64,000 nt of DNA, from NCBI RefSeq assembly GCF_965219815.1, contig NZ_OZ244791.1, positions 2,092,491 to 2,156,490 of the forward strand, given 5' to 3'. Below the pieces are notes generated by a model. That model worked only from the letters and a program-made list of their open reading frames with translations, ran no database searches and was not told the DNA's origin. Of the stretch, positions 7,146-64,000 are shown piece by piece. A program made the position numbers and the translations under genes. Position 1 is the stretch's first letter, and every line of letters begins with the position of its first letter. This DNA is from Candidatus Poriferisocius sp. GTDB taxonomy: Bacteria; Actinomycetota; Acidimicrobiia; Acidimicrobiales; Bin134.

Positions 7146-8426
7146 ATGCGCGCTGAACATCAACCACGGGTGGCCGACCAGGAACTCCATGACCTGATAA
7201 GCGAATTGCCCGCGGTCAGCATTGAGGGGCCCAGGGCGGTGGGGAAGACCTGGACGGCCAGTCGGGTAGCCAGCACCGTGTATGCGCTGGACGATCCTGA
7301 CGTCCTCGCCGAGGTGCGGGCTGATTCTCGCCTCCTCACCCGGGGGGAACCGCCCATCCTGATAGACGAGTGGCAGCGGTTCCCCGAGTCATGGGACATC
7401 GTGCGCAGATCTGTGGACCGAGAGTTCAGTCCGGGGAAATTCATCCTCACTGGATCGGCCCGGCCGGAGACTCGTCCCGCCCACTCAGGCGCGGGGCGGA
7501 TTGTCACCTTGCGAATGTGGACAACTGCGCTTGCTGAGCGCCGCCTAGAAGCGTCCACCGTCAGTCTGAAGTCGCTCTTGGCGGGAGATCGCATCGATAT
7601 CGAAGGCCAAAGCGGCCTTGAATTGGAGGACTATGCATCTGAGATTGCCTCCGGAGGGTTTCCCGGCTGGCGAAACACCACTGGTCGAGCGCGAGACCTT
7701 CTTCTCGACGGCTATCTCCACCGGCTGGCCGAGCACGACTTCCCGCTATCTGGCCACCGAGTCCGCAACCCCGCAGCCCTGCGCCGTTGGCTGACTGCCT
7801 ATGCCGCAGCCAGCTCGAGCACAGCTTCCTACGAGACCATCCGCGATGCCGCTACTTCTGGCGAGGGCGACAAGCCGTCAAAGACTACGACCCTCGCTTA
7901 TCGGGACACCCTTGAATCCATGTGGATATTGGAGCCACAACTGGCCTGGTTGCCGGTAGGGAGCCACCTGAGTCGCCTCAAACGAAGTCCCAAACACCAC
8001 TTGGCTGACACAGCATTGGCTGCCCGATTGCTCAATGCGACCGCCGACACCCTGGTCGGCACTGACGCATATCTTCAGGCTGGGTCCGGGCTGGCCGACA
8101 CCGGGTTGCTCGGAGCCTTGTTTGAGTCGATGGTTATCCACGATCTGCGGGTATACGCCCAGTCGGCCGATGCCAGGTTGTCCCATATGCGCACTTGGAA
8201 CGACGAGCGAGAGGTGGACGCGATAATCGAGCACCGGGGACGGGTACTGGCCGTGGAAGTCAAGCTGGGATCAGAAGTGACAGGCCACGACACCCGGCAC
8301 CTGCGATGGCTGCGAGACCGGATCGGGCCAGGACTCCTTGATGCTGTCGTGATTACTTCCGGTCAGGAGGCTTATCGTGATGACGAGGGGATAGCAATCG
8401 TCCCAGCAGGGTTATTGGGGCCCTAG
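7146..8426 (+). CDS. AAA+ ATPase with C-terminal DUF4143 domain
   Basis: Walker A GPRAVGKTW. C-terminal PKHHLADTALAARLL...GALFESMVIHDL...EREVDAII...AVEVKLG matches the DUF4143 pattern. Preceded by a 130-bp AT-rich spacer. Confidence 0.7.
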   Translation: MRAEHQPRVADQELHDLISELPAVSIEGPRAVGKTWTASRVASTVYALDDPDVLAEVRADSRLLTRGEPPILIDEWQRFPESWDIVRRSVDREFSPGKFILTGSARPETRPAHSGAGRIVTLRMWTTALAERRLEASTVSLKSLLAGDRIDIEGQSGLELEDYASEIASGGFPGWRNTTGRARDLLLDGYLHRLAEHDFPLSGHRVRNPAALRRWLTAYAAASSSTASYETIRDAATSGEGDKPSKTTTLAYRDTLESMWILEPQLAWLPVGSHLSRLKRSPKHHLADTALAARLLNATADTLVGTDAYLQAGSGLADTGLLGALFESMVIHDLRVYAQSADARLSHMRTWNDEREVDAIIEHRGRVLAVEVKLGSEVTGHDTRHLRWLRDRIGPGLLDAVVITSGQEAYRDDEGIAIVPAGLLGP

Positions 8427-8438
8427 CTCGCGACCGCG

Positions 8439-9479
8439 TTACCAATTACTCGCCATTTCCCGGAGAGAGGAAACGTCCAATCCCCGGTCATGGCACCACC
8501 ACCAGGCATGGCTGCGACAGGCGGCGTCGGTCAGGTCGTAAGCGTCGGTGGCTTGCCTCAGGTCGTAGACGGAAAGAAACGCCTCGGTATGGGCATAGAC
8601 GATCACACCGAGGTCCCAGCGGTCCTGATCGGCGCTGGCCCATTCCCAGGCATGGGCATAGGTGGCTGTTGCAAGACCCCTCGCCGCCGGAATCACCGTC
8701 TCATTCCAATCGCGTAGGGCCGCAGCCACCTGATCGGTCTCCGCAAGGGTCGGGTCAGGGACATTGGGGTTGTCGCGGGCGGAAAGGTAGGCATGCAGTT
8801 TGGCGGTGTATTCGTCTTTGTCCAACAGAGCGGACTCAAGGGCAGTGCTCAAAGCACGCCGGGCCGAGGCCAGGGCAGGAGGCGCATCGGGAGGCGGCCA
8901 TAACACTGGGACCGGAGAAGCGTGGGCCAATCCGAGGCCGTGCGAGCTGTAGGCAGAAGCATGGTGGGCAAACTCCATTACCGCGTGGCTGGCGAAGTGC
9001 AGGCCTGAGGGCCAGGGTGGTCCAGATTCACAGGATTCAGACAACCGGATGTTGTGGTCGTACAGAATCTCGTCTGGCGCTTCCGGCATGTCGGGGTCGT
9101 TGGCACATTCGTCGAGAGCCAGATCCCACAAGACTGAATATGCGTTGCGGCACAGTTCTTCGGGTTCGAAGGAGAATCCCAATCGGCCCACCATCTCCCC
9201 CAGCAATTCCCCGGCCAGGGCCACGCCGAAGTCATCGTCCGTCGATCCCGCTTCAAGACGGCGAGCATCCTTCGGGTCGCCTATCTGAGGATGGTTGTCA
9301 CACGCTTGGAGAGCCAGTGACGGCATCTTGTCGCAGGCATAGGCGACCTTGTCGGACCACTCTGTTCGGCTGTAGTCGGCAAATGAAGCCGAGGCGGCTT
9401 CCTTCGCAGCCTCCACCAACCATCTGGGCCTAGGTGGCGAGTCAAATGTCGGGAGTATTCTCAGTGCGGTCTTATCCAT
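8439..9479 (-). CDS. hypothetical protein (346 aa, no recognisable domain)
   Basis: Long ORF with coding-like GC3. Its upstream region shares a conserved motif with the methylase gene (see repeats at 9498 and 11545). Confidence 0.5.
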   Translation of the reverse strand: MDKTALRILPTFDSPPRPRWLVEAAKEAASASFADYSRTEWSDKVAYACDKMPSLALQACDNHPQIGDPKDARRLEAGSTDDDFGVALAGELLGEMVGRLGFSFEPEELCRNAYSVLWDLALDECANDPDMPEAPDEILYDHNIRLSESCESGPPWPSGLHFASHAVMEFAHHASAYSSHGLGLAHASPVPVLWPPPDAPPALASARRALSTALESALLDKDEYTAKLHAYLSARDNPNVPDPTLAETDQVAAALRDWNETVIPAARGLATATYAHAWEWASADQDRWDLGVIVYAHTEAFLSVYDLRQATDAYDLTDAACRSHAWWWCHDRGLDVSSLREMASNW

Positions 9480-9497
9480 GCCCCCACCCTAAGCAGG

Positions 9498-9521
9498 GGG
9501 TATGACAGTTTCTGTCCTGAC
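9498..9521. repeat. direct repeat copy 1 (GGGTATGACAGTTTCTGTCCTGAC)
   Basis: Matches 11545-11567 at 22 of 24 aligned positions. Sits 18 nt upstream of the start of the 346-aa gene. Confidence 0.65.
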
Positions 9522-9542
9522 CTGTCTAGCCAACCAGCAAGC

Positions 9543-10433
9543 TCACAAAGGCCGTAAGCGGGATAACAGAGCTGATTCAAAGTGTTCTCGGCTGACAGTG
9601 TCAGCGGCCTGGAGTCTCTTGTTGGAATCCTCCAAGGTGAGTACCTCCCAGTGGTCTCGAGCTAGCTGCCATGTGCCTGCGGCTGAGCGTTCCAAACTGG
9701 TGACAAGCCAGATGATGTCGCCTTCGTTGAGGTCTTGGCTGGGTTGATCACTGGTGCCGCCGACGGCGTTGAAGAACGGGCGGTCCACCGCGACGGCGAG
9801 CTTGGCACCCCAGCGACGCAGTGTTGGTGCCTTGATTTCCAGTTGTGGCATCAGGCGTTTGGCGCTTGAGGAACGCCAGTCGGGACGGCGGACCTCCGAT
9901 GGGTAGGGAGGCGGTTCGTGGGTGTCGTCTCGCAGCGCTTCGAACTCACTGGTCATCCCCTTGCCAGAGAAATAGACGGCCTGGATCTCCAAACCATGCC
10001 ATCTCAAATTCTCGCCTTGTACATGGGCAACGATCATGTCGATCTTGCCGGCAGGCTTGTTCGTCTCCGTGCTCCGCATGAAGGGCACTTCACCTGCCAC
10101 TTGGGTTTCCTGTGTCGGAAAGCCGGCCACTTCAGCTAACCACCGGAGTACAAGGCTCTTTTCCTCAAACCGGCGTGGGCAGGTGATGACCGGCTCATCT
10201 GCTGGTTGGCCTAGACGGTGGTCGTTGTCCTCTGTGTAGCGCTGGATGGAGCAAACGCCCCCCTTCTTTGAGCACGTTGGATGGTTGGGCTGGAATGGAC
10301 ACGTTGGAGGCTCAGCATCGGATTCACCTAGTGCATGCTTGGCGAAGACAACCCGCTGGGTCGCGGCGAGAGAGGTGAAGTCCTGTCCATACCACTCCGC
10401 AATTCCGTAGCGCGTCCTAAGTTCGTCTGGCAT
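9543..10433 (-). CDS. NotI-family (PD-(D/E)XK with N-terminal Cys4 site) type II restriction endonuclease
   Basis: N-terminus IAEWYGQDF...TCPF...CSKKGGVCSI...ITCPRRF parallels my memory of NotI (IAEFFG...TCPF...GVCVV...VCPNRA). LEIQAVYFSG parallels NotI LEIQTMDFHG. Confidence 0.65.
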   Translation of the reverse strand: MPDELRTRYGIAEWYGQDFTSLAATQRVVFAKHALGESDAEPPTCPFQPNHPTCSKKGGVCSIQRYTEDNDHRLGQPADEPVITCPRRFEEKSLVLRWLAEVAGFPTQETQVAGEVPFMRSTETNKPAGKIDMIVAHVQGENLRWHGLEIQAVYFSGKGMTSEFEALRDDTHEPPPYPSEVRRPDWRSSSAKRLMPQLEIKAPTLRRWGAKLAVAVDRPFFNAVGGTSDQPSQDLNEGDIIWLVTSLERSAAGTWQLARDHWEVLTLEDSNKRLQAADTVSREHFESALLSRLRPL

Positions 10434-10447
10434 CAGAATGGGCCGGG

Positions 10448-11527
10448 TCAGATGAAGACAGTTCGTCGGGTAATGACGAGTTCGGATATCTGAGCGTGGT
10501 GGGTGTTTTTCATGACTACTTCAACGGCGTGGAAACCGTACTCTGCAATGAGTTCGGCGATCTCTGGCGAACGGTCGTAGGTCATCAGAAAGTTCACTGG
10601 GGATTGCGCCAGGATCTTGAAGAGTCGTCGGTGGTCTAACTGGTTGTGGCTGTAGAGACGCCTGCCGGCTCGTTTGCCGCCTGCGGTGTACGGAGGGTCA
10701 ATGAAGGCGACCGTACCGGGCACCTCGGCAATGACCTCTAAGAGGTCAAGCCCATCGGCTTCGCAGAAGTTGATCTGCGGCGCGTGGGCTTCGATATTTC
10801 GCAATCGCTGGATGATGGTGTCGGGATACCAACGAGATGCGAGACCCTTGTTGTTTTCCCCTGACTTTGTTAAGGCAGCCCCAGGGGCGAGGATGCCACC
10901 GCGTCGAGTTCGGTTTAGGACCAAGGTGCGGAACCCGTGCTCGAGCAGCCCTCTGGGGGCTTGGTCAGCCAGAGCCGAAACAGATTCGCGTGTCGGTTCG
11001 AACTCAGATACGAGGTGACACAACTCGGCGTTGTGGCGTAGCGCCGCGTGCCAGAAAGCAGCCACATCGTGGTCTAGTTCGGCCATGAAGCATTGTTCGA
11101 CCAAGCTCTCGCACACCGCCGTGAGAGCAACTATGCCTCCGCCGCAGAATGGCTCAATGAGCGTCCTCGGTCTGGGCTGAATGGGTGCGAGCCAAGCCCG
11201 TATGTGGGGAATTAGCCAGGTCTTTCCGCCTGGGTAGCGCAGTGGTGAGCGCTGAGGCACCGAGGCAACATTGACAGCCGGGATGGGGGAGATTGGGAAG
11301 CCAGGGCCGTAGCCAGGCAAGGACGATTCGGTCTCGCTAGGCTCCCTTTGCGCCTTCATGGCGTTCGCGGCCTTGGGTGAGTCGACCTGCGCCTTTGCAC
11401 TGCTAACCAGCATGTCACGAGGACGATCCTCATCGGTGGACCTTTCAGCGGCATGGTGCGCGCTGCCTAGACGCTTTGGTCCCATCGCGGGAATCTGCAT
11501 TTGATCGATCCTCGGTTTATCCGTCAT
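10448..11527 (-). CDS. D12-class (Dam-like) DNA methyltransferase, probable N6-adenine
   Basis: RYPGGK, EPFCGGG (motif I) and FIDPPY (motif IV). About 95-aa low-complexity N-terminal extension, so the true start may be further in. Confidence 0.8.
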   Translation of the reverse strand: MTDKPRIDQMQIPAMGPKRLGSAHHAAERSTDEDRPRDMLVSSAKAQVDSPKAANAMKAQREPSETESSLPGYGPGFPISPIPAVNVASVPQRSPLRYPGGKTWLIPHIRAWLAPIQPRPRTLIEPFCGGGIVALTAVCESLVEQCFMAELDHDVAAFWHAALRHNAELCHLVSEFEPTRESVSALADQAPRGLLEHGFRTLVLNRTRRGGILAPGAALTKSGENNKGLASRWYPDTIIQRLRNIEAHAPQINFCEADGLDLLEVIAEVPGTVAFIDPPYTAGGKRAGRRLYSHNQLDHRRLFKILAQSPVNFLMTYDRSPEIAELIAEYGFHAVEVVMKNTHHAQISELVITRRTVFI

Positions 11528-11544
11528 TACCCGAGATTAAGGAT

Positions 11545-11567
11545 GGGTATGACAGTTTCAGTCCGAC
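11545..11567. repeat. direct repeat copy 2 (GGGTATGACAGTTTCAGTCCGAC)
   Basis: Lies 17 nt upstream of the methylase start and overlaps the stop codon (11558-11560) of the SAM methyltransferase gene. Copy 1 is 2,047 bp away. Confidence 0.65.
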
Positions 11568-12379
11568 GGGCAGACCCCGATCACCTCGCCGTTTATCCAG
11601 GCCCAGAAGCCGTCGGGCTGGACGGCCCATTGGCGGAAGGCGTCGGAGATTTCCTGTAGTTCATCGCGGGTGGCGAATCCGTTGTTGACTGCGTGCTCGG
11701 CAAAATCGCTTTCGATTGCCCGAACCGCCCACATCTCGCCCCACACAGTCCGACCCTCGTGGTCGGTGTGGGCAGTGGTGGTGGCAGTGGCCTCGATATC
11801 GGTGAAACCGGCTTCAATTGCCCACGACAGCAGATAGCGACCGGCGTCGGCCTCACCGCCGTTGGCGGTCGCAACCTGATGGTAGAGGTCTCGCCAGCGC
11901 TCGATGGCCGGAAACACGGGAGCGTGGATCATGGTGGCGTAGTCGGAGTCGCGCACGGCCACCAGCCCGCCGGGACGCAGTACTCGCCGGGCCTCCCGCA
12001 AGGCCCGGACCGGATCGGAAAGGTGCTGGAGCACCTGATGGGCGTACACCACGTCGAAGCTGGCGTCGTCCCACGGCAGCTCGTAGACCGAGCCGACCTC
12101 AAACGATGCGTTGGAGAGGCCGCAGTCGTCGGCATGGGCACGGGCCGCGTCCACCACTTCAGCCGACAGGTCTAGGCCCACCACCCGGCCAGCGCGGCGG
12201 GCCAGACCAGCGGTGATGGTGCCCGAGCCGCAACCGATGTCGAGCACCTCGGCATCGGGTCTCAGTCGAGGCAGCAAGAAGGTGGCGCATGACTCGGCCG
12301 TGCGCCGGGAGTGCCATCCCACGATTACCTGGTGGTAACCGTGGGTGTAAGTCTCGCCCTCGGGCTGTTGTTCAGCCAA
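11558..12379 (-). CDS. class I SAM-dependent methyltransferase
   Basis: VLDIGCGSGTIT motif I and the following acidic loop VGLDLS. 8-nt overlap with the P450 gene. Confidence 0.8.
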   Translation of the reverse strand: MAEQQPEGETYTHGYHQVIVGWHSRRTAESCATFLLPRLRPDAEVLDIGCGSGTITAGLARRAGRVVGLDLSAEVVDAARAHADDCGLSNASFEVGSVYELPWDDASFDVVYAHQVLQHLSDPVRALREARRVLRPGGLVAVRDSDYATMIHAPVFPAIERWRDLYHQVATANGGEADAGRYLLSWAIEAGFTDIEATATTTAHTDHEGRTVWGEMWAVRAIESDFAEHAVNNGFATRDELQEISDAFRQWAVQPDGFWAWINGEVIGVCPSD

Positions 12380-13598
12380 CGGGTTCAGGAGTCAAGAACG
12401 CGTCGAGGCGGTCGGGTCCGTTGGCCCAGAACACCGGGGTCTTCTTGCGAACGCATCCGGGAGCCAGTTCGGCAGATGCCACCCGGTCCAAGAACACCTC
12501 CAAGGCCACCCGGCCCTCCAGGCGGGCCAGGCTGGCGCCGGGGCAAATGTGGGGTCCGCCGCCGAAGGCGATGTGGTCTTTGGGACGGTCCCGGTCGAGC
12601 CGGAACTCGTCGGGGTGGTCGAAGTAGTCCTCGTCCCGGTTGGCCGACGACACGCCGAACACGATCTTGTCGCCGCTGCGCATCGGGGCGCCGAACACGT
12701 CGGTGTCCGCAGTGCAGTCCCGAATGAGCATGTGGGCAGGGGAGTCGATCCGCAGCGATTCCTCCACTGCCCGCTCAGAGAGGCTCCGGTCGGCCTTGAG
12801 GGTGGCGAACAACTCGGGGTCGCCGATGATGCGCCACAGCAGGTTGCCGATCAGGTGCCGAGTGGTCTCGTTGCCCGACATGATGAGGAACGCAAGCTGG
12901 GTGCGTATCTCCACGTCGGTGAGGCGATGGCCCTCGATCTCGGTAGTGATGAGCCGGGTGACCAGGTCGTCGGGGGCCTCGTCGCTGGCCCGCCGCTCGG
13001 CGATCAGCGCGTCGATGTAGGCGCAGAACTCGGGGTGGGCGCCGGCCAGGCCCTCGCCCCGCTCGTTGCGGTTGGTGCGGGGGTAGTCGCCCAGTACCAC
13101 CTCGTCGGTCCAGGCGTGGAACTGCTCCCAATCCTCGGCGGGCACCCCGATGAGGTGGGATATCACGTTGATGGGCACCGGGGTTATGAACTCGGCCACC
13201 AGCTCGCCGTGGCCTCGCTCCAAGATCGGGTCGAGATACTGGTGGCACAGATCCCGCACGAACGGCTCGGCCCGCATCGACTTGTGATGGGCCACCGTCG
13301 CGTTGATGATCCTTCGCACCTTGCCGTGGCGGGGTTCGGGGATCTCGCTGATGAGCTTCTCCTCTTCGGGCACCACCACGCCGGGATCGCGGAAGCTGGA
13401 CACGAAGGTCTCCACGTCTCTGGTGGCCTCTAGGACATGGTCGAACTTGGTGAGGTACCAGCCGGTGGGAGTCCGAGCTACCGGGCACTCCGACCGCAGC
13501 TCGGCCAGCGTGTCGATGGGCACCTCCTCGGGATAGCCGAACGGGTCGAATGCCATGTCCTCGTCGGAAGGCGTGAGCGGATCAGACGTCAAGCTCAT
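12372..13598 (-). CDS. cytochrome P450
   Basis: Heme-thiolate loop FGGGPHICPGASLAR, I-helix SGNETT, ExxR (ESLR). Confidence 0.9.
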   Translation of the reverse strand: MSLTSDPLTPSDEDMAFDPFGYPEEVPIDTLAELRSECPVARTPTGWYLTKFDHVLEATRDVETFVSSFRDPGVVVPEEEKLISEIPEPRHGKVRRIINATVAHHKSMRAEPFVRDLCHQYLDPILERGHGELVAEFITPVPINVISHLIGVPAEDWEQFHAWTDEVVLGDYPRTNRNERGEGLAGAHPEFCAYIDALIAERRASDEAPDDLVTRLITTEIEGHRLTDVEIRTQLAFLIMSGNETTRHLIGNLLWRIIGDPELFATLKADRSLSERAVEESLRIDSPAHMLIRDCTADTDVFGAPMRSGDKIVFGVSSANRDEDYFDHPDEFRLDRDRPKDHIAFGGGPHICPGASLARLEGRVALEVFLDRVASAELAPGCVRKKTPVFWANGPDRLDAFLTPEPVG

Positions 13599-54095: not shown

Positions 54096-54193
54096 CCCCA
54101 CACCGACACCAGCAACCCCAAACCCACACTTTCGCGCAGTGAGGTTCTGAGGTTCCCCCCTTTTCGTGGAGACATGCTCTATAAGGAGGAGCT

Positions 54194-54478
54194 ATGTCCA
54201 GACCGCGAAGAGATTATGACCGGGAGTTCCGTGATGGGGCTGTCCGGATCGTCAAGGAGACCGGCCGGCCGGTGGCCCACGTCGCCCGGGAGCTCGGCGT
54301 CAACGAGGGCACGCTCGGGAATTGGGTGCGCCGGGACCGAGACGAGCGCTCGGGCGGGCTGAGCGGCGACGAGCGGGCCGAGCTGGCCCGGCTGCGCCGC
54401 CGGGTCGCCGAGCTGGAGATGGAGCGTGATGTGCTCAAACGATCCGTGGTCCTTTGGGTCAACGAGGCGACGCGGTGA
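54194..54478 (+). CDS. IS3-family transposase OrfA
   Basis: 94 aa, identical to 61709..61993. Confidence 0.85.
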
Positions 54479-55074
54479 CCGCAGGGTTCATCGCGGCCCA
54501 AAGGACCGACCACGGTGTGCCTCACTCTGTGGCTTGCAGAGCGCTGGGCGTGGCGGAATCCACGTTCTACAAGCACCTCGACCGGCCGCTGACCGATCGG
54601 CAGCGGCGTCGCCGGGCGCTGGACGCCGAGGTGAAAAAGGCGTTCGACGAATCGGACGGCACCTACGGGTCGCCCAGGGTGCGCGCCCGGCTGCGACGCG
54701 ATGGCCTGTCGGTGTCGAAGAAGACGGTGGAGGCCTCGATGGCCCGCCAGGGCCTGTGCGCCCGCCCCAAACGCAAAAAGGGCCTCACCAGCCCCGACAG
54801 CTCCCATGCGGCCCCCACAGACCTTCTGGGCCGCGACTTCAGCGCGACAGGGGTCAACCAGAAATGGTGCGGCGACTTCAAACAGGTTCCCACCGCCGAG
54901 GGCCCGGTGTTCCTCGCGACCGTCGAGGACCTCTACTCCAGGCGCATGGTCGGCTTCGCCACCTCCGACCGGTACCCGACCGCCGAGCTGGCCAAACAGG
55001 CCATCAACACCGCGGTCGCCACCAGAGGCGGCAACGTCAAAGGCGTCATCTTCCACTCGGACAAGGGATCGCAA
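54454..55074 (+). pseudogene. IS3-family OrfB, N-terminal part (broken by IS30)
   Basis: Identical to copy 2 up to ...[10 protein letters not shown], then runs into the IS30 inverted repeat. Confidence 0.85.
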
Positions 55075-56528
55075 GCCGGATTCAATCGGTCGTCGCAACA
55101 CCGGGTTGTTGAGCGCAGTGTAGGTGTTCGTTGAGGGTTTCGGCGGGTGTTTTCCAGCCGAGTACTTTGCGGGGTCTGTTGTTGAGCGTGGCGGCGACTG
55201 CTTCGATCTCTTCTGCTGACCATCGCGAGAGGTCGGTGCCCTTGGGGAAGTATTGGCGCAGCAGGCCGTTGGTGTTCTCGTTGGTTCCGCGCTGCCAGGG
55301 GCTCTTCGGGTCGGCGAAGTAGACGGGGATGTCGGTGGCGGCGGTGAACTCGGCGTGGGCGGAGAGCTCCTTGCCCCGGTCCCAGGTCAAAGAGCGTTGG
55401 ATCTGTTCGGGGAGGGTGGACATCGAGCGTGACAGTGCGTTCTTCATGGTGACCGCTCCGTAGCCGGCGAGGGCCGGCCCGTTCTTGGTTCTGGGCTGTT
55501 TGCCGTAGCCGGGCTCTCGTGGCAGGTGGATCAGCATCGTGAACCGGGTGGTGCGCTCGACGAGGGTGCCGATGGCGGAGCGCTTGAGGCCGATCACCAG
55601 GTCGCCTTCCCAGTGTCCGGGGACTGCCCGGTCGGCGGCCTCGGCGGGGCGTTCGCTGATCAACACGTCGTCGGTGACGTGGTCCCAGGCCCGGCGCCCC
55701 ACTCGGGCTCGGGGGACCCGCAGGGCGCGCCCGGTCCGCAGGCACGCGACCAGGTCGCGTTTGAGGGCGCCGCGGCCCTCGACGTAGAGAGCCTGATAGA
55801 TGGCTTCGTGGCTGATCCGCATGGACCCATCATGGGGGAAGTCGACCGGCAGGCGCCGTGCGATCTGCTCGGGGCTCCAGGCCTGCACCCAGCGCCGGTC
55901 GCCGCGGTGGGGCTTGTTCTTGCCGTTCCACTGAGGGCCCTCGGGGCCCAGCACCCGCCCATCGGGCGCCTGGACGCGCCCCGAGAGGCGGTCCTGCACA
56001 TAGCATCGGAGCCGGTCGTTGACAGCCAGCTTCGCAGGCTTGGGGCGACGGGCGCGGCGCTCGGCATGCCACTGGGCGATCGTCGCTTTGTACTCGAGCC
56101 GAAACGTCCTCGTCGACGCGTTCCGGCGCAACTCCCGCGAGACCGTCGACGCAGACCGGCCGAGCCTCCGGGCTATCTCACGCACCCCGGCGCCCTGAGC
56201 ACGCCACAAGGCGATCTCCTCTCGCTCGGCAAACGACAGATAGCGGCCCGACACCGCCGGGGGAAGGAAAGGGTTCACACCGCCAGCGTGCCGGAACCAC
56301 CGGTACCCGACCGGCGCCGACACCCCGGCCGAAGCCGCCGCGTCGCCAGTCTTTTCCCCACCGGCGACAGCCTCCCAAAACCTCACCCGATCCCGCCGCC
56401 ACGCCACCGTCGGCCGCCCCGGCGACGGAACCTGCCCCGATACAGCCGAACCTCCCGCTGCCGCTCCACCATCGTCACCATCAAACACCTCCATCGTCAA
56501 GGTGTTGCGACGACCGATTGAATCCGGC
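55075..56528 (-). mobile_element. IS30-family insertion sequence, 1,454 bp
   Basis: Perfect 28-bp terminal IRs GCCGGATTCAATCGGTCGTCGCAACACC. 3-bp target duplication CAA (55072-74 / 56529-31). Confidence 0.9.
55082..56494 (-). CDS. IS30-family transposase
   Basis: 470 aa from MEVFDGDD. HTH REIARRLGRSASTVSRELRRN, catalytic region PGHWEGDLV. The track ORF extends beyond the IS end and was trimmed. Confidence 0.85.
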   Translation of the reverse strand: MEVFDGDDGGAAAGGSAVSGQVPSPGRPTVAWRRDRVRFWEAVAGGEKTGDAAASAGVSAPVGYRWFRHAGGVNPFLPPAVSGRYLSFAEREEIALWRAQGAGVREIARRLGRSASTVSRELRRNASTRTFRLEYKATIAQWHAERRARRPKPAKLAVNDRLRCYVQDRLSGRVQAPDGRVLGPEGPQWNGKNKPHRGDRRWVQAWSPEQIARRLPVDFPHDGSMRISHEAIYQALYVEGRGALKRDLVACLRTGRALRVPRARVGRRAWDHVTDDVLISERPAEAADRAVPGHWEGDLVIGLKRSAIGTLVERTTRFTMLIHLPREPGYGKQPRTKNGPALAGYGAVTMKNALSRSMSTLPEQIQRSLTWDRGKELSAHAEFTAATDIPVYFADPKSPWQRGTNENTNGLLRQYFPKGTDLSRWSAEEIEAVAATLNNRPRKVLGWKTPAETLNEHLHCAQQPGVATTD

Positions 56529-56531
56529 CAA

Positions 56532-56828
56532 TACACCTCAGAAGCCTTCGCCGCCGCCTGCCGGCGGCTCGGCATCTCACGGTCCACCGGAAGAACCGGC
56601 AACGCGCTGGACAACGCGCCGGCCGAGTCGTTCTTCTCCACGCTCACCCACGAACTCATCTCACGCCGGGCCTGGACCACCAGAGCCCGGGCCCGACGAG
56701 AAATCACCCTATGGGTCCACACCTGGTACAACCAGCACCGCCTCCACTCCGCAATCGGAATGACCAGCCCCGTAGAATACGAACAGGCCCACAACCCCGA
56801 CCCTCAAAAACAAACTCTCCACGATTAG
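56532..56828 (+). pseudogene. IS3-family OrfB, C-terminal part
   Basis: [38 protein letters not shown]... continues OrfB after the IS30. Differs from copy 2 by a few substitutions (T versus Q in FSTL[T/Q]HE). Confidence 0.85.
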
Positions 56829-56858
56829 GGGGGAAGCTCAGTTCCCCCCGTTGTCCGG

Positions 56859-61184: not shown

Positions 61185-61417
61185 CTCAGAAAGTGGGCTC
61201 GTGCTGGCATCGCGTGAACGATTCTAGGGTCTTCTCCCCTTGTCGTTATTCCCACTTCCAGCATGCGACCGCCGTAATCGGCGCCAATGAGCATCAAGAT
61301 ACCGTCCCGATGGAAGATGCGGATCGCGTTCCGACATGCATGGCGGGCATCGTGTTCGGCGATTCCATGCCGGCGAGCGCTGTCGGCGAACTCCAGCCGA
61401 GAGAAATCTAAATACAT
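61181..61417 (-). CDS. small toxin-like protein (BrnT-like pattern), hypothetical
   Basis: 78 aa. RRHGIAEHDARHA...LIGADYGGRMLEVGI...RIVHAMPAR loosely follows BrnT-type toxins. Toxin-first gene order. Confidence 0.3.
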   Translation of the reverse strand: MYLDFSRLEFADSARRHGIAEHDARHACRNAIRIFHRDGILMLIGADYGGRMLEVGITTRGEDPRIVHAMPARAHFLR

Positions 61418-61420
61418 TGA

Positions 61421-61440
61421 TATAGCATATTATAGCGTAT
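61421..61440 (-). promoter_or_regulatory. tandem 10-bp repeat TATAGC(A/G)TAT x2 containing a perfect TATAAT on the minus strand
   Basis: The minus strand reads ATACGCTATAATATGCTATATCA-ATG. The -10 box ends 11 nt before the start codon, implying a leaderless or very short-leader mRNA and a likely operator. Confidence 0.4.
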
Positions 61441-61556
61441 GAACGCGACTACCAAAGATTGGATCCAATGCATGAAACGCCCGGAGGTGCTGGTGCTTGG
61501 CGGTTGTGAGGGAGGGTGTGAGGCGGAGTCGGGGGCTTCGGGTAGCGTGGCTCGTT

Positions 61557-61662
61557 GTGAGTGAGGGGGGCTATCGGCCGAAGCTGATTGAAGTGGCGTT
61601 GCCTTTGGCGGCGATTAATGCGGAGGCTGCGCGGGAGAAGTCGATTCGGCATGGGCATCCTT
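61557..61662 (+). pseudogene. DUF1156/COG1743-type DNA methylase, 5' fragment
   Basis: ...[30 protein letters not shown] is the conserved DUF1156 N-terminus. Cut by the IS3 at 61663. Start codon uncertain (GTG 61557 or upstream TTG 61497). Confidence 0.75.
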
Positions 61663-61708
61663 TGAGGTTCCCCCCTTTTCGTGGAGACATGCTCTATAAG
61701 GAGGAGCT

Positions 61709-61993
61709 ATGTCCAGACCGCGAAGAGATTATGACCGGGAGTTCCGTGATGGGGCTGTCCGGATCGTCAAGGAGACCGGCCGGCCGGTGGCCCACGTCGC
61801 CCGGGAGCTCGGCGTCAACGAGGGCACGCTCGGGAATTGGGTGCGCCGGGACCGAGACGAGCGCTCGGGCGGGCTGAGCGGCGACGAGCGGGCCGAGCTG
61901 GCCCGGCTGCGCCGCCGGGTCGCCGAGCTGGAGATGGAGCGTGATGTGCTCAAACGATCCGTGGTCCTTTGGGTCAACGAGGCGACGCGGTGA
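61709..61993 (+). CDS. IS3-family transposase OrfA
   Basis: [15 protein letters not shown]...LGNWVRRD...[18 protein letters not shown]. Confidence 0.85.
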
Positions 61994-62886
61994 CCGCAGG
62001 GTTCATCGCGGCCCAAAGGACCGACCACGGTGTGCCTCACTCTGTGGCTTGCAGAGCGCTGGGCGTGGCGGAATCCACGTTCTACAAGCACCTCGACCGG
62101 CCGCTGACCGATCGGCAGCGGCGTCGCCGGGCGCTGGACGCCGAGGTGAAAAAGGCGTTCGACGAATCGGACGGCACCTACGGGTCGCCCAGGGTGCGCG
62201 CCCGGCTGCGACGCGATGGCCTGTCGGTGTCGAAGAAGACGGTGGAGGCCTCGATGGCCCGCCAGGGCCTGTGCGCCCGCCCCAAACGCAAAAAGGGCCT
62301 CACCAGCCCCGACAGCTCCCATGCGGCCCCCACAGACCTTCTGGGCCGCGACTTCAGCGCGACAGGGGTCAACCAGAAATGGTGCGGCGACTTCAAACAG
62401 GTTCCCACCGCCGAGGGCCCGGTGTTCCTCGCGACCGTCGAGGACCTCTACTCCAGGCGCATGGTCGGCTTCGCCACCTCCGACCGGTACCCGACCGCCG
62501 AGCTGGCCAAACAGGCCATCAACACCGCGGTCGCCACCAGAGGCGGCAACGTCAAAGGCGTCATCTTCCACTCGGACAAGGGATCGCAATACACCTCAGA
62601 AGCCTTCGCCGCCGCCTGCCGGCGGCTCGGCATCTCACGGTCCACCGGAAGAACCGGCAACGCGCTGGACAACGCGCCGGCCGAGTCGTTCTTCTCCACC
62701 CTCCAACACGAGCTCATCTCACGCCGAGCCTGGACCACCAGAGCCCGGGCCCGACGAGAAATCACCCTATGGGTCCACACCTGGTACAACCAGCACCGCC
62801 TCCACTCCGCAATCGGAATGACCAGCCCCGTAGAATACGAACAGGCCCACAACCCCGACCCTCAAAAACAAACTCTCCACGATTAG
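61969..62886 (+). CDS. IS3-family transposase OrfB (DDE), -1 frame relative to OrfA
   Basis: [33 protein letters not shown]. Uninterrupted here. Confidence 0.85.
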
Positions 62887-62898
62887 GGGGGAAGCTCA

Positions 62899-64000
62899 CT
62901 TCTACGTTGCACTTGTGGTGGGCTCGGCGGCCGTTGGCGGCGGCTCGGGCGGTGATTTGGGCGTCATTGGTGGACGATCCGTCGGGGGATGAGTCGCTGA
63001 CGCCGGATGAGCAGGAGGCGGAGCGGCAACGGTTGTTTGGCATCTTGGAGCGGCTGGTGAAGTGGGAGAACTCCAATGATCCTGAGGTGCTGGCTGAGGC
63101 TCGGGCGGAGATCGACCGCTGTTTTCCGGACGGGGCGCCGCCGATCCTCGATCCGTTTGCGGGGGGCGGGGCCATTCCGCTGGAGGCGCAGCGGCTGGGT
63201 TTGAAGGCGTTGGCGGGCGACTTGAATCCGGTGGCGGTGCTGATCAACAAGGCGATGATCGAGATACCACCCCGCTTTGCCGGGATGCCGCCGGTGCATC
63301 CGGATATTGACAAGACCCTCACGACGTGGGAACGGGCGCAGGGGTTGGCGGCGGACGTGTGGGCTTATGGGCGGTGGATGCGCGACGAGGCCGAGCGGCG
63401 GATCGGACACCTGTACCCGGATGCGACGGGTCCGAACGGGGAGAAGCTGACACCGATTGCCTGGATATGGGCGAGAACGGTGGAGTCGCCTGATCCGAGT
63501 TGGTCGGGGCATGTGCCGTTGGTGGCCTCGTGGACGCTGGCCAAGCGGCCGGGCAAGCCCAAGGTGTGGATTGAGCCGGTCGTGGATCGGGCTGCGCAGA
63601 CGATCAGTTACGAGATACGTGAAGGCGGCGAGCCTCTGTATGAGCGAACCTGTAGCGGTGGCGATGGAGTGTGTCTTGCGACAGGTTCAGCAATTCCGGC
63701 CACGTACATAAAGGGAGAAAGTCGCGCAGGGAGGATGGGTCAGGAACTGATCGCTGTTGTGGCTGAGGGGGACTTTGGAAGAGCGTACTGTTCGCCTAGA
63801 GCAACAGATAGAGCGGCGGCGATCGCGGAGCTACCAGTTTGGAAGCCAGAGGAATCTCTACCTCAAAAGGGTCTTGGCTTTCGAGTTCAAGCCTACGGCC
63901 TAGACGAGTGGTGGAAGCTATTCGTCTCAAGACAGCTGATGGCCCTCACCACCTTTTCAGATCTACTCGAAGATGTGGCAAGGATGGTTGAATCGGACGC
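62899..64000 (+). pseudogene. DUF1156/COG1743-type DNA methylase, 3' portion (runs off window)
   Basis: My translation from 62901 is open for 366 codons: STLHLWWARRPLAAARAV...DPFAGGGAIPLEAQRLGLKALAGDLNPVAVLINKAMIEIPPRFAG (SAM motif I). Confidence 0.8.

Follow-up and report, generated by a model that had tools for sequence, protein, structure and literature searches.

What becomes of a defence locus when a mobile element lands in its methylase gene? This question is raised by a stretch of 64,000 nucleotides (nt; hereafter the window) from Candidatus Poriferisocius sp. (RefSeq assembly GCF_965219815.1, contig NZ_OZ244791.1, positions 2,092,491 to 2,156,490 of the forward strand), near the right edge of which an insertion sequence (IS) of the IS3 family cuts a predicted DNA methyltransferase gene. 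The window lies within a single 3.74-Mb contig, so the sequence past its edge could be read as well; positions are those of the window unless given as genome coordinates. Profile matches and gene order lead us to assign the split gene to hmaB of the Hma (helicase–methylase–ATPase) system, alias Type-1 DUF499-centred BREX-related (Type-1 BR). We put the probability that the insertion, which lies in codon 36 and duplicated CTT, made a recent null or near-null allele at roughly 0.87.

An insertion bordering the most conserved HmaB motif

Direct reading of positions 61200-64000 showed that the 5′ fragment of hmaB, on the plus strand, opens with GTG at 61557 and reads ...EKSIRHGHP to 61661/2, with homology to the orthologues of relatives starting 14-20 nt 5′ of this GTG. 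The IS follows between codons 35 and 36, in the same orientation as hmaB; it opens with TGAGGTTCCCCCC at 61663 and closes with ...GGGGGGAAGCTCA at 62898. These readings bear out a first-pass annotation of the window, which had reported the EKSIRHGHP end, the extent of the IS with its TG...CA ends and the CTT on both sides of it (coordinates in Table 1). The same annotation had proposed that deletion of the IS plus one CTT gives cat cct tct acg, that is HGHP-STLHLWWARRP, and joining 61557..61662 to 62902.. yielded exactly this. The join is a 923-codon open frame, free of further stops and frameshifts, that ends at window-equivalent position 65567, which is 1.57 kb beyond the window edge; the absence of stops first noted up to the window edge therefore extends beyond it, where further lesions could have betrayed long-standing decay. 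The observation is thus confirmed: the IS landed cleanly in hmaB, a real but ordinary event.

The two fragments are complementary parts of one protein. Pfam DUF1156 (PF06634) matches the left fragment at profile positions 1-23 (26 bits), the right fragment at positions 25-72 (58 bits) and the join at positions 1-72 of 73 in one stretch (97 bits). Against the PADLOC HmaB profile (PDLC00660) the join scores 1063 bits, with residues 9-912 on profile positions 10-958 of 967, so that the collinearity with DUF1156 proteins on which the first-pass annotation had staked its claim is present. In an alignment of 32 homologues, among them paralogues that are 51% and 33% identical, the joined HmaB retains 136/136 invariant columns and 349/354 columns conserved at ≥90%, so there is no hidden missense decay; its column retention is 99.0%, compared with 94.8-96.8% when intact close homologues were each left out and scored in the same way.

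The joined protein shows the group-alpha order of an FxGxG motif I, a central recognition domain and a catalytic DPPY, with motif I (FAGGG) at residue 121 and motif IV (DPPY) at residue 526, beyond the window edge. It is accordingly classified as a predicted DUF1156-type N6-adenine DNA methyltransferase. Residues ~281-640 (window ~63130 to past the edge) are 40-60% identical to the orthologue of the congeneric species G019, and the flanks are 90-100% identical; this hypervariable segment lies between motifs I and IV, the family's place for the target-recognition domain. Such a mosaic is consistent with a target-recognition domain, and with it a specificity, that has been swapped between species. 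A sequence search of the PDB with HmaB returned no match, and when the closest intact orthologue was modelled with AlphaFold2 from the 32-sequence alignment, the result was poor (mean predicted local distance difference test score 54, predicted template-modelling score 0.32, residues 15-47 below 50).

The invariant run S36 T37 L38 H39. W41 W42 A43 R44 R45 P46 L47, the densest of the whole protein among the 32 aligned homologues, starts right at the cut. Because the insertion falls at the edge of this most conserved motif of the family (STLHxWWARRPL), we read the allele as null or near-null. The alternative that survives best is that there is no knock-out and that a truncated HmaB, expressed by read-out from the IS, keeps methylation, targeting or both. 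Both public gene calls for the disrupted gene describe a coding sequence of this kind, one of 886 amino acids from TTG 62907 and one of 932 amino acids from an ATG inside the IS (~62770); labelled "DUF1156 domain-containing protein", they mask the break. The IS and hmaB are co-oriented, the hmaB frame contains no stop between 61941 and the right end of the IS, FAGGG and DPPY both lie downstream of the cut, and a G-rich stretch, GGGGGGAAG (62886-94), sits 12 nt before TTG 62907. Such a product, however, would lack residues 1-35 or 1-37, including the invariant K28, G33, S36 and T37 and a near-invariant 10-residue block, and with them the first third of DUF1156, the signature domain of the family. 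A consensus scan of 61300-63100 found no sigma-70-like promoter and none directed outward, and the 46 residues that the IS would contribute come from reading the transposase gene out of frame and are rich in Pro and Arg. Moreover, by the precedent of the related MANTIS system (see below), a protein that targets without methylating would be toxic. Taken together, these points make a working truncated HmaB improbable, and we favour loss of function.

Relatives carry the empty site

With the 606-bp joined sequence as a probe, uninterrupted hmaB orthologues were found in many congeneric species. In eight of these (G019, G004, G016, G014, G015, G018, G023 and G011), the alignment crosses the junction without a gap, at 89.6-96.0% nt identity, and all eight orthologues translate without a break through ...RHGHPSTLHLWWARRP.... 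The G004 orthologue contains a single CTT, in CATCCTTCTACG, and its DNA across the join is exactly that of the scar-free reconstruction, CATGGGCATCCTTCTACGTTGCA. The insertion is shared by no congeneric species examined. The closest intact homologue (P0002) is 923 amino acids long, 90% identical and encoded at a syntenic locus. No identical intact copy of HmaB occurs in a collection of 5.8 billion proteins; the two members of the 100%-identity cluster are the two gene calls of this same genome. For the 78-amino-acid gene upstream of hmaB, an exact look-up gave as sole match a 914-bp Logan contig, SRR33343646, which ends at about window position 61494, short of hmaB.

The insertion stems from a recent burst of identical copies

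Full-length copies of the IS occur 16 times in the genome, with 100% identity throughout their 1,236 bp, and the IS is the most abundant rve-type element among the genome's 37 rve hits. Because the best matches in 39 other congeneric genomes are only ~80-87% identical, this identical family represents a lineage-specific burst. Target duplications are 4 bp long at ten copies, 3 bp at three (CTT at hmaB included) and 2 bp at one, and two copies have none; direct repeats of 3-4 bp flank 13/16 copies as found and two further copies once an inversion is undone, so that the CTT pair at hmaB is no mere coincidence. Inspection by eye of the sequences flanking the 16 copies showed no target consensus. 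The two duplication-less copies, C1:1736641-1737876 (minus strand) and C1:3211897-3213132 (plus strand), have reciprocal flanks, and cross-joining these restores the 4-bp duplications GCAG and TCGT, evidence that ~1.47 Mb of the chromosome was inverted through recombination between the two inverted copies; the window lies between them.

Two of the identical copies touch other coding sequences. The copy at C1:612438-613673, flanked by a GTC duplication, breaks a 987-amino-acid open frame with DMACGTG (motif I-like) and NPPF (motif IV), which has weak PADLOC matches to Type II/IIG methylases and MADS mad2 (35-37 bits). The frame is read as a second methylase-like gene struck by the burst. At C1:1469313-1470548, another copy cuts off the C-terminal end of a 642-residue frame at amino acid 583; the frame matches the PADLOC candidate PDC-M33A weakly (41 bits).

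Because nothing else in hmaB has decayed, we regard the insertion as recent. The undecayed 923-codon join and the 16 identical copies support this, in agreement with the first-pass annotation, which had taken the insertion for the only visible lesion and for a recent knock-out. A similar picture might arise if hmaB had long been dead and the IS copies had been homogenised by gene conversion, a process known in general among IS copies. In the IS nest that separates hmaA from hmaB, the left part of the older copy (genome 2146638-2147564) matches IS positions 1-927 at 100% identity and its right part (genome 2149019-2149330) matches positions 925-1236 at 98%, which hints at patchy histories, and further IS debris has accumulated in the locus. 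An old insertion is nevertheless very unlikely: across 2.77 kb hmaB has no stop, frameshift or loss of an invariant residue, both copies of CTT are intact, the partners hmaA and hmaC are full length with their catalytic motifs, and the congeneric species examined all lack the insertion. Misplacement of a repeat copy into hmaB at genome closure is hardly credible, for although assemblies classically go wrong at repeats such as these sixteen identical ones of 1.2 kb, an exact 3-bp duplication whose flanks join to a perfect frame matching orthologue DNA is the mark of real transposition and not of a mis-join, and the genome is one contig.

The split gene belongs to an Hma locus

Intact predicted partners stand on either side of the recent insertion. 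HmaA scores 1314 bits against its PADLOC profile (residues 9-1177 on positions 4-1169 of 1176) and matches Pfam SNF2-rel, Helicase_C and NOV_C (54 bits), with the motifs GAGKT, DEAH and D...EVK kept. HmaC scores 936 bits against PADLOC HmaC and matches Pfam DUF499 (101 bits) and HEPN_Swt1 (80 bits); it keeps RNSWAH (Rx4H), GGGKT and LIDEW (Walker A/B). The earlier description of a knocked-out modification gene therefore stands as to the knock-out and falls as to a stand-alone modification gene, because the gene is the predicted methylase of an Hma/Type-1 BREX-related defence system.

The Hma system was defined by Payne et al. in 2021 (PMC8565338), and the Type-1 DUF499-centred BREX-related description dates from 2026, with the HEPN-fused ATPase variant in 1370/2446 taxa (PMC12839542). 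The locus resembles both in its near-full-length PADLOC matches to all three subunits; in its domains, which comprise an SNF2 helicase with a C-terminal PD-(D/E)xK nuclease, a DUF1156 methylase with motif I, recognition domain and DPPY, and a DUF499 ATPase with an N-terminal HEPN; and in its layout, with all genes on one strand and foreign cargo between them. It differs in the IS-interrupted hmaB and in the 12.6 kb between hmaA and hmaB, which hold an RHH-Doc pair, an ImmA-type protease module, the IS nest and small gene pairs (more than 10 open reading frames in all). The PADLOC spacing rule allows at most 3 embedded genes per gap, and because this gap holds many more, strict application of the rule would not join hmaA and hmaB, although the genes are co-oriented. 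Embedded cargo is reported between hma genes in 62.7% of 1,485 Hma systems, with mobility genes making up 3.1% of embedded genes (10.1101/2024.01.29.577857).

Synteny with relatives leads us to treat hmaA, hmaB and hmaC as one ancestral locus. Relatives keep the gene order hmaA, cargo, hmaB, small genes, hmaC, PIN: in G019 and G004, 5 kb separate hmaA from hmaB and two small antisense genes separate hmaB from hmaC, with amino-acid identities of 84%, 78%, 96% and 97% for hmaA, hmaB, hmaC and PIN, respectively. The closest relative (L044, GCA_022825005.1, JAJDYU010000077.1) has the same SDR gene at the left border, followed by hmaA, RHH-Doc, intact hmaB and HEPN-DUF499 hmaC. Its slot between hmaA and hmaB (L044 4784-9914) is occupied by a pair of AAA_21 ATPase genes, a nuclease resembling DpnII/MboI, and a gene with a Piwi domain (short Argonaute-like) together with its 350-amino-acid partner; these differences show cargo turnover at the same chromosomal spot. 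In the genome studied here, the two antisense genes between hmaB and hmaC encode 129 and 123 amino acids on the minus strand (L028 4142-4899, window-equivalent 65651-66408) and are 63-72% identical to those in the same slot of G019 and G004; apart from one weak, sub-threshold DUF6301 match, they gave no family match. Because these two genes separate hmaC from hmaB, hmaC is unlikely to suffer polarity from the insertion.

Loss of HmaB would probably switch the system off without self-restriction

In the classical view of restriction–modification, loss of a methylase is expected to lead to self-restriction. In BREX, loss or phase variation of the methylase PglX turns the system off without toxicity. 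In MANTIS, a Type-2 BR system, deletion of the methylase gene mtsC is likewise non-toxic and abolishes restriction, because the methylase gives the nuclease its sequence recognition, and only a catalytically dead yet DNA-binding methylase is toxic (10.64898/2026.09.23.753747). Because in the related MANTIS and BREX the methylase also supplies recognition of the DNA sequence, loss of hmaB likely ends the whole sequence-directed function. By this analogy, removal of the methylase probably removes targeting too, so self-restriction would not be expected, and an hmaB-null allele should be tolerated, fitting its presence in a closed genome. The Halomonas findings given below likewise speak against self-restriction.

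The course of events can be set out as follows. An IS3-family element from the lineage-specific 16-copy burst transposed into codon 36 of hmaB, probably by copy-out/paste-in, the route usual for the IS3 family, duplicating the 3-bp CTT and parting the first 35 residues of HmaB from the remainder. The loss of HmaB would most likely abolish both self-methylation and the sequence-directed restriction of the locus without causing autoimmunity, as in MANTIS and BREX. Intact HmaA and HmaC would then have no activity left, or at most one that needs no methylase, as has been reported for HmaA alone in Halomonas, where HmaA by itself protects Escherichia coli against T4 and HmaB has no protective effect like that of restriction–modification (PMC11232893).

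Several points weigh against this account. Its functional part, a probable loss of restriction without autoimmunity, is drawn by analogy from Type-2 BR and BREX; the Halomonas data suggest that HmaA may keep working alone; and the insertion is seen in one closed assembly. Gene conversion could also maintain part of the identity among IS copies, so that this identity gives no strict date, and the 3′ fragment is in frame with the open frame that leaves the IS, is annotated as a coding sequence of 886 or 932 amino acids and could yield a truncated product.

A bolder reading can be held tentatively. In this genome a Type-1 BR (Hma) system may have lost its methylase naturally while the catalytic motifs of the nuclease-helicase and the HEPN-ATPase stay intact, in a cell that is evidently viable. 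This might then amount to in vivo evidence that in Type-1 systems, as shown for MANTIS and BREX, the methylase is the targeting subunit and its loss a safe off switch. In the stronger version of this reading, in which the insertion of the same IS into the methylase-like gene at 612,438 is taken into account, selection might have favoured the shedding of methylation-based barriers while the IS burst was under way.

Anatomy and family of the IS

The features of the interrupted gene, the IS and the surrounding locus are collected in Table 1. The terminal repeats of the IS are the longest inverted pair that a repeat finder reported in the region. Assignment to the IS3 family, as first annotated, is borne out by the orfB product, which scores 284 bits against the IS3 transposase model NCBIfam NF033516 (cut-off 160; profile positions 93-369 of 369) and matches Pfam rve (DDE integrase core; 79 bits), HTH_21 (58 bits) and rve_3. 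The IS thus combines an rve transposase above cut-off, overlapping open reading frames in frames 0/-1, TG...CA repeats and 3-4 bp duplications. It shares with IS911, IS150 and IS3 a length of ~1.2 kb, TG...CA ends, imperfect repeats of ~25 nt, an orfA with a helix-turn-helix and an orfB with a DDE domain in frames 0/-1, 3-4 bp target duplications and multi-copy bursts. It differs from them in that the canonical A-AAA-AAG slippery heptamer is not visible: none was seen by eye upstream of the stem-loop in the 49-nt overlap of orfA and orfB. The stem-loop over this overlap contains an 11-bp perfect inverted repeat (61963-73/62012-22) and may stimulate the orfA/orfB frameshift at a site that we infer. 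No named ISfinder entry was matched to the IS with the tools used.

Table 1. Coordinates of the interrupted hmaB, the inserted element and associated features (window positions unless stated)
Feature	Position	Strand	Description
hmaA	45348..48893	+	Intact 1181-amino-acid SNF2 helicase with C-terminal NOV_C / PD-(D/E)xK nuclease; 12.6 kb upstream of hmaB
Older IS copy, split	54148..56840 (54148-55074 + 56529-56840)	+	Broken by a 1,454-bp element; in the IS nest between hmaA and hmaB
hmaB 5′ fragment	61557..61662	+	GTG start, 35 codons plus base 1 of codon 36; last 3 nt are the left duplication copy
Target-site duplication CTT, left copy	61660..61662		From sequence reading
IS3-family insertion sequence	61663..62898	+	1,236 bp; starts TG, ends CA
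Left terminal inverted repeat TGAGGTTCCCCCCTTTTCGTGGAGA	61663..61687	+	25 nt, 88% complementary to 62874-62898
IS orfA	61709..61993	+	94 amino acids; Pfam HTH_Tnp_1 52 bits; NCBIfam IS3 profile positions 1-81
IS orfB frame	61945..62886	+	In the -1 frame with respect to orfA; open from 61945, with TTG 61969 as the first start listed (305 amino acids, 61969-62886)
RNA stem-loop over the orfA/orfB overlap	61959..62030	+	-40 kcal/mol, z = -2.4; candidate frameshift stimulator
Right terminal inverted repeat ...GGGGGGAAGCTCA	62874..62898	+	25 nt; repeat finder
Target-site duplication CTT, right copy	62899..62901		From sequence reading
hmaB 3′ fragment	62899..64000	+	Codon 36 onward; leaves the window, ends at window-equivalent 65567
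hmaC	genome 2158931-2162180		1082 amino acids; N-terminal Swt1-like HEPN and DUF499 ATPase; 0.87 kb downstream of hmaB, past the window

Relatives of the IS in several other species are broken at the same point as the older, split copy in the window. In G023, G018 and G054 (halves adjacent) and in G014 and G015 (right half listed alone), the break lies at nt 925-927, and elements broken in this way sometimes occur twice per genome. Such recurrence means either that the 1.45-kb element is site-specific or that the IS-in-IS composite is itself mobilised.

Other hma loci in the same genome

A second hmaABC locus, compact, complete and uninterrupted, lies at genome C1:3522224-3531024 (L042) and is ~30% identical to the first. 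An orphan hmaB, intact, 931 amino acids long and 52% identical to the split one, lies at genome 2,254,025-2,256,778, and a C-terminal hmaB fragment lies at genome 143,333-144,721. In the region around the orphan (L039, C1:2246000-2265999; positions 7999-10794 and 11421-12706), no hmaA or hmaC is found nearby, and a Dsr1-like SIR2 gene sits on the opposite side of the orphan from a nested IS. That IS, an identical copy at genome 2,257,470 and 0.7 kb past the orphan, was considered as a hit on a second Hma gene and rejected, as its insertion point is the orfA start codon of another, related IS, within the left end of that element.

Comparison with known systems and significance

A studied counterpart, the Hma system of Halomonas meridiana (PMC11232893), has the same three genes, a hotspot between hmaA and hmaB with other defence genes and an IS3 transposase in that island. 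It differs in that its hmaB is intact, and a natural hmaB-null allele is not described there; anti-phage activity was tested for HmaA only (PMC11232893). MANTIS (also Gao_RL, Type-2 BR) shares a homologous DUF499 ATPase and an N6-adenine methylase of group alpha (FAGGG...DPPY, recognition domain in the centre) and differs in having the DUF3870 protein MtsB and the PLD-helicase MtsD, neither of which is present at the locus studied here (10.64898/2026.09.23.753747). The NCBIfam anti-phage DUF499 / DUF1156 / PLD models stay far below cut-off at the locus (NF042962, 159/1200 bits; NF042963, 46/1000, with the 3′ fragment only; NF042964, 170/1100), and Pfam found no PLD domain in HmaA. With BREX the parallel is functional: there too neither modification nor exclusion proceeds without the methylase, and a methylase-null allele is tolerated as an off state. 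The BREX methylase (PglX), however, belongs to the gamma group and has other partners, and the off state at hmaB is brought about by an IS and is not readily reversible.

The insertion is otherwise an event of a well-known kind, in a defence system that is itself already known. It does have a practical consequence: because the broken gene passes for a normal protein of 886 or 932 amino acids in both public gene calls, automated counts of defence systems will score this Hma locus as intact despite its disrupted methylase. It is also a tidy, datable case in which a defence island is being worn away by an IS burst. Finally, the genome provides a natural hmaB-null background in which hmaA and hmaC are intact, one that could be used to ask whether targeting by Type-1 BR systems needs the methylase.

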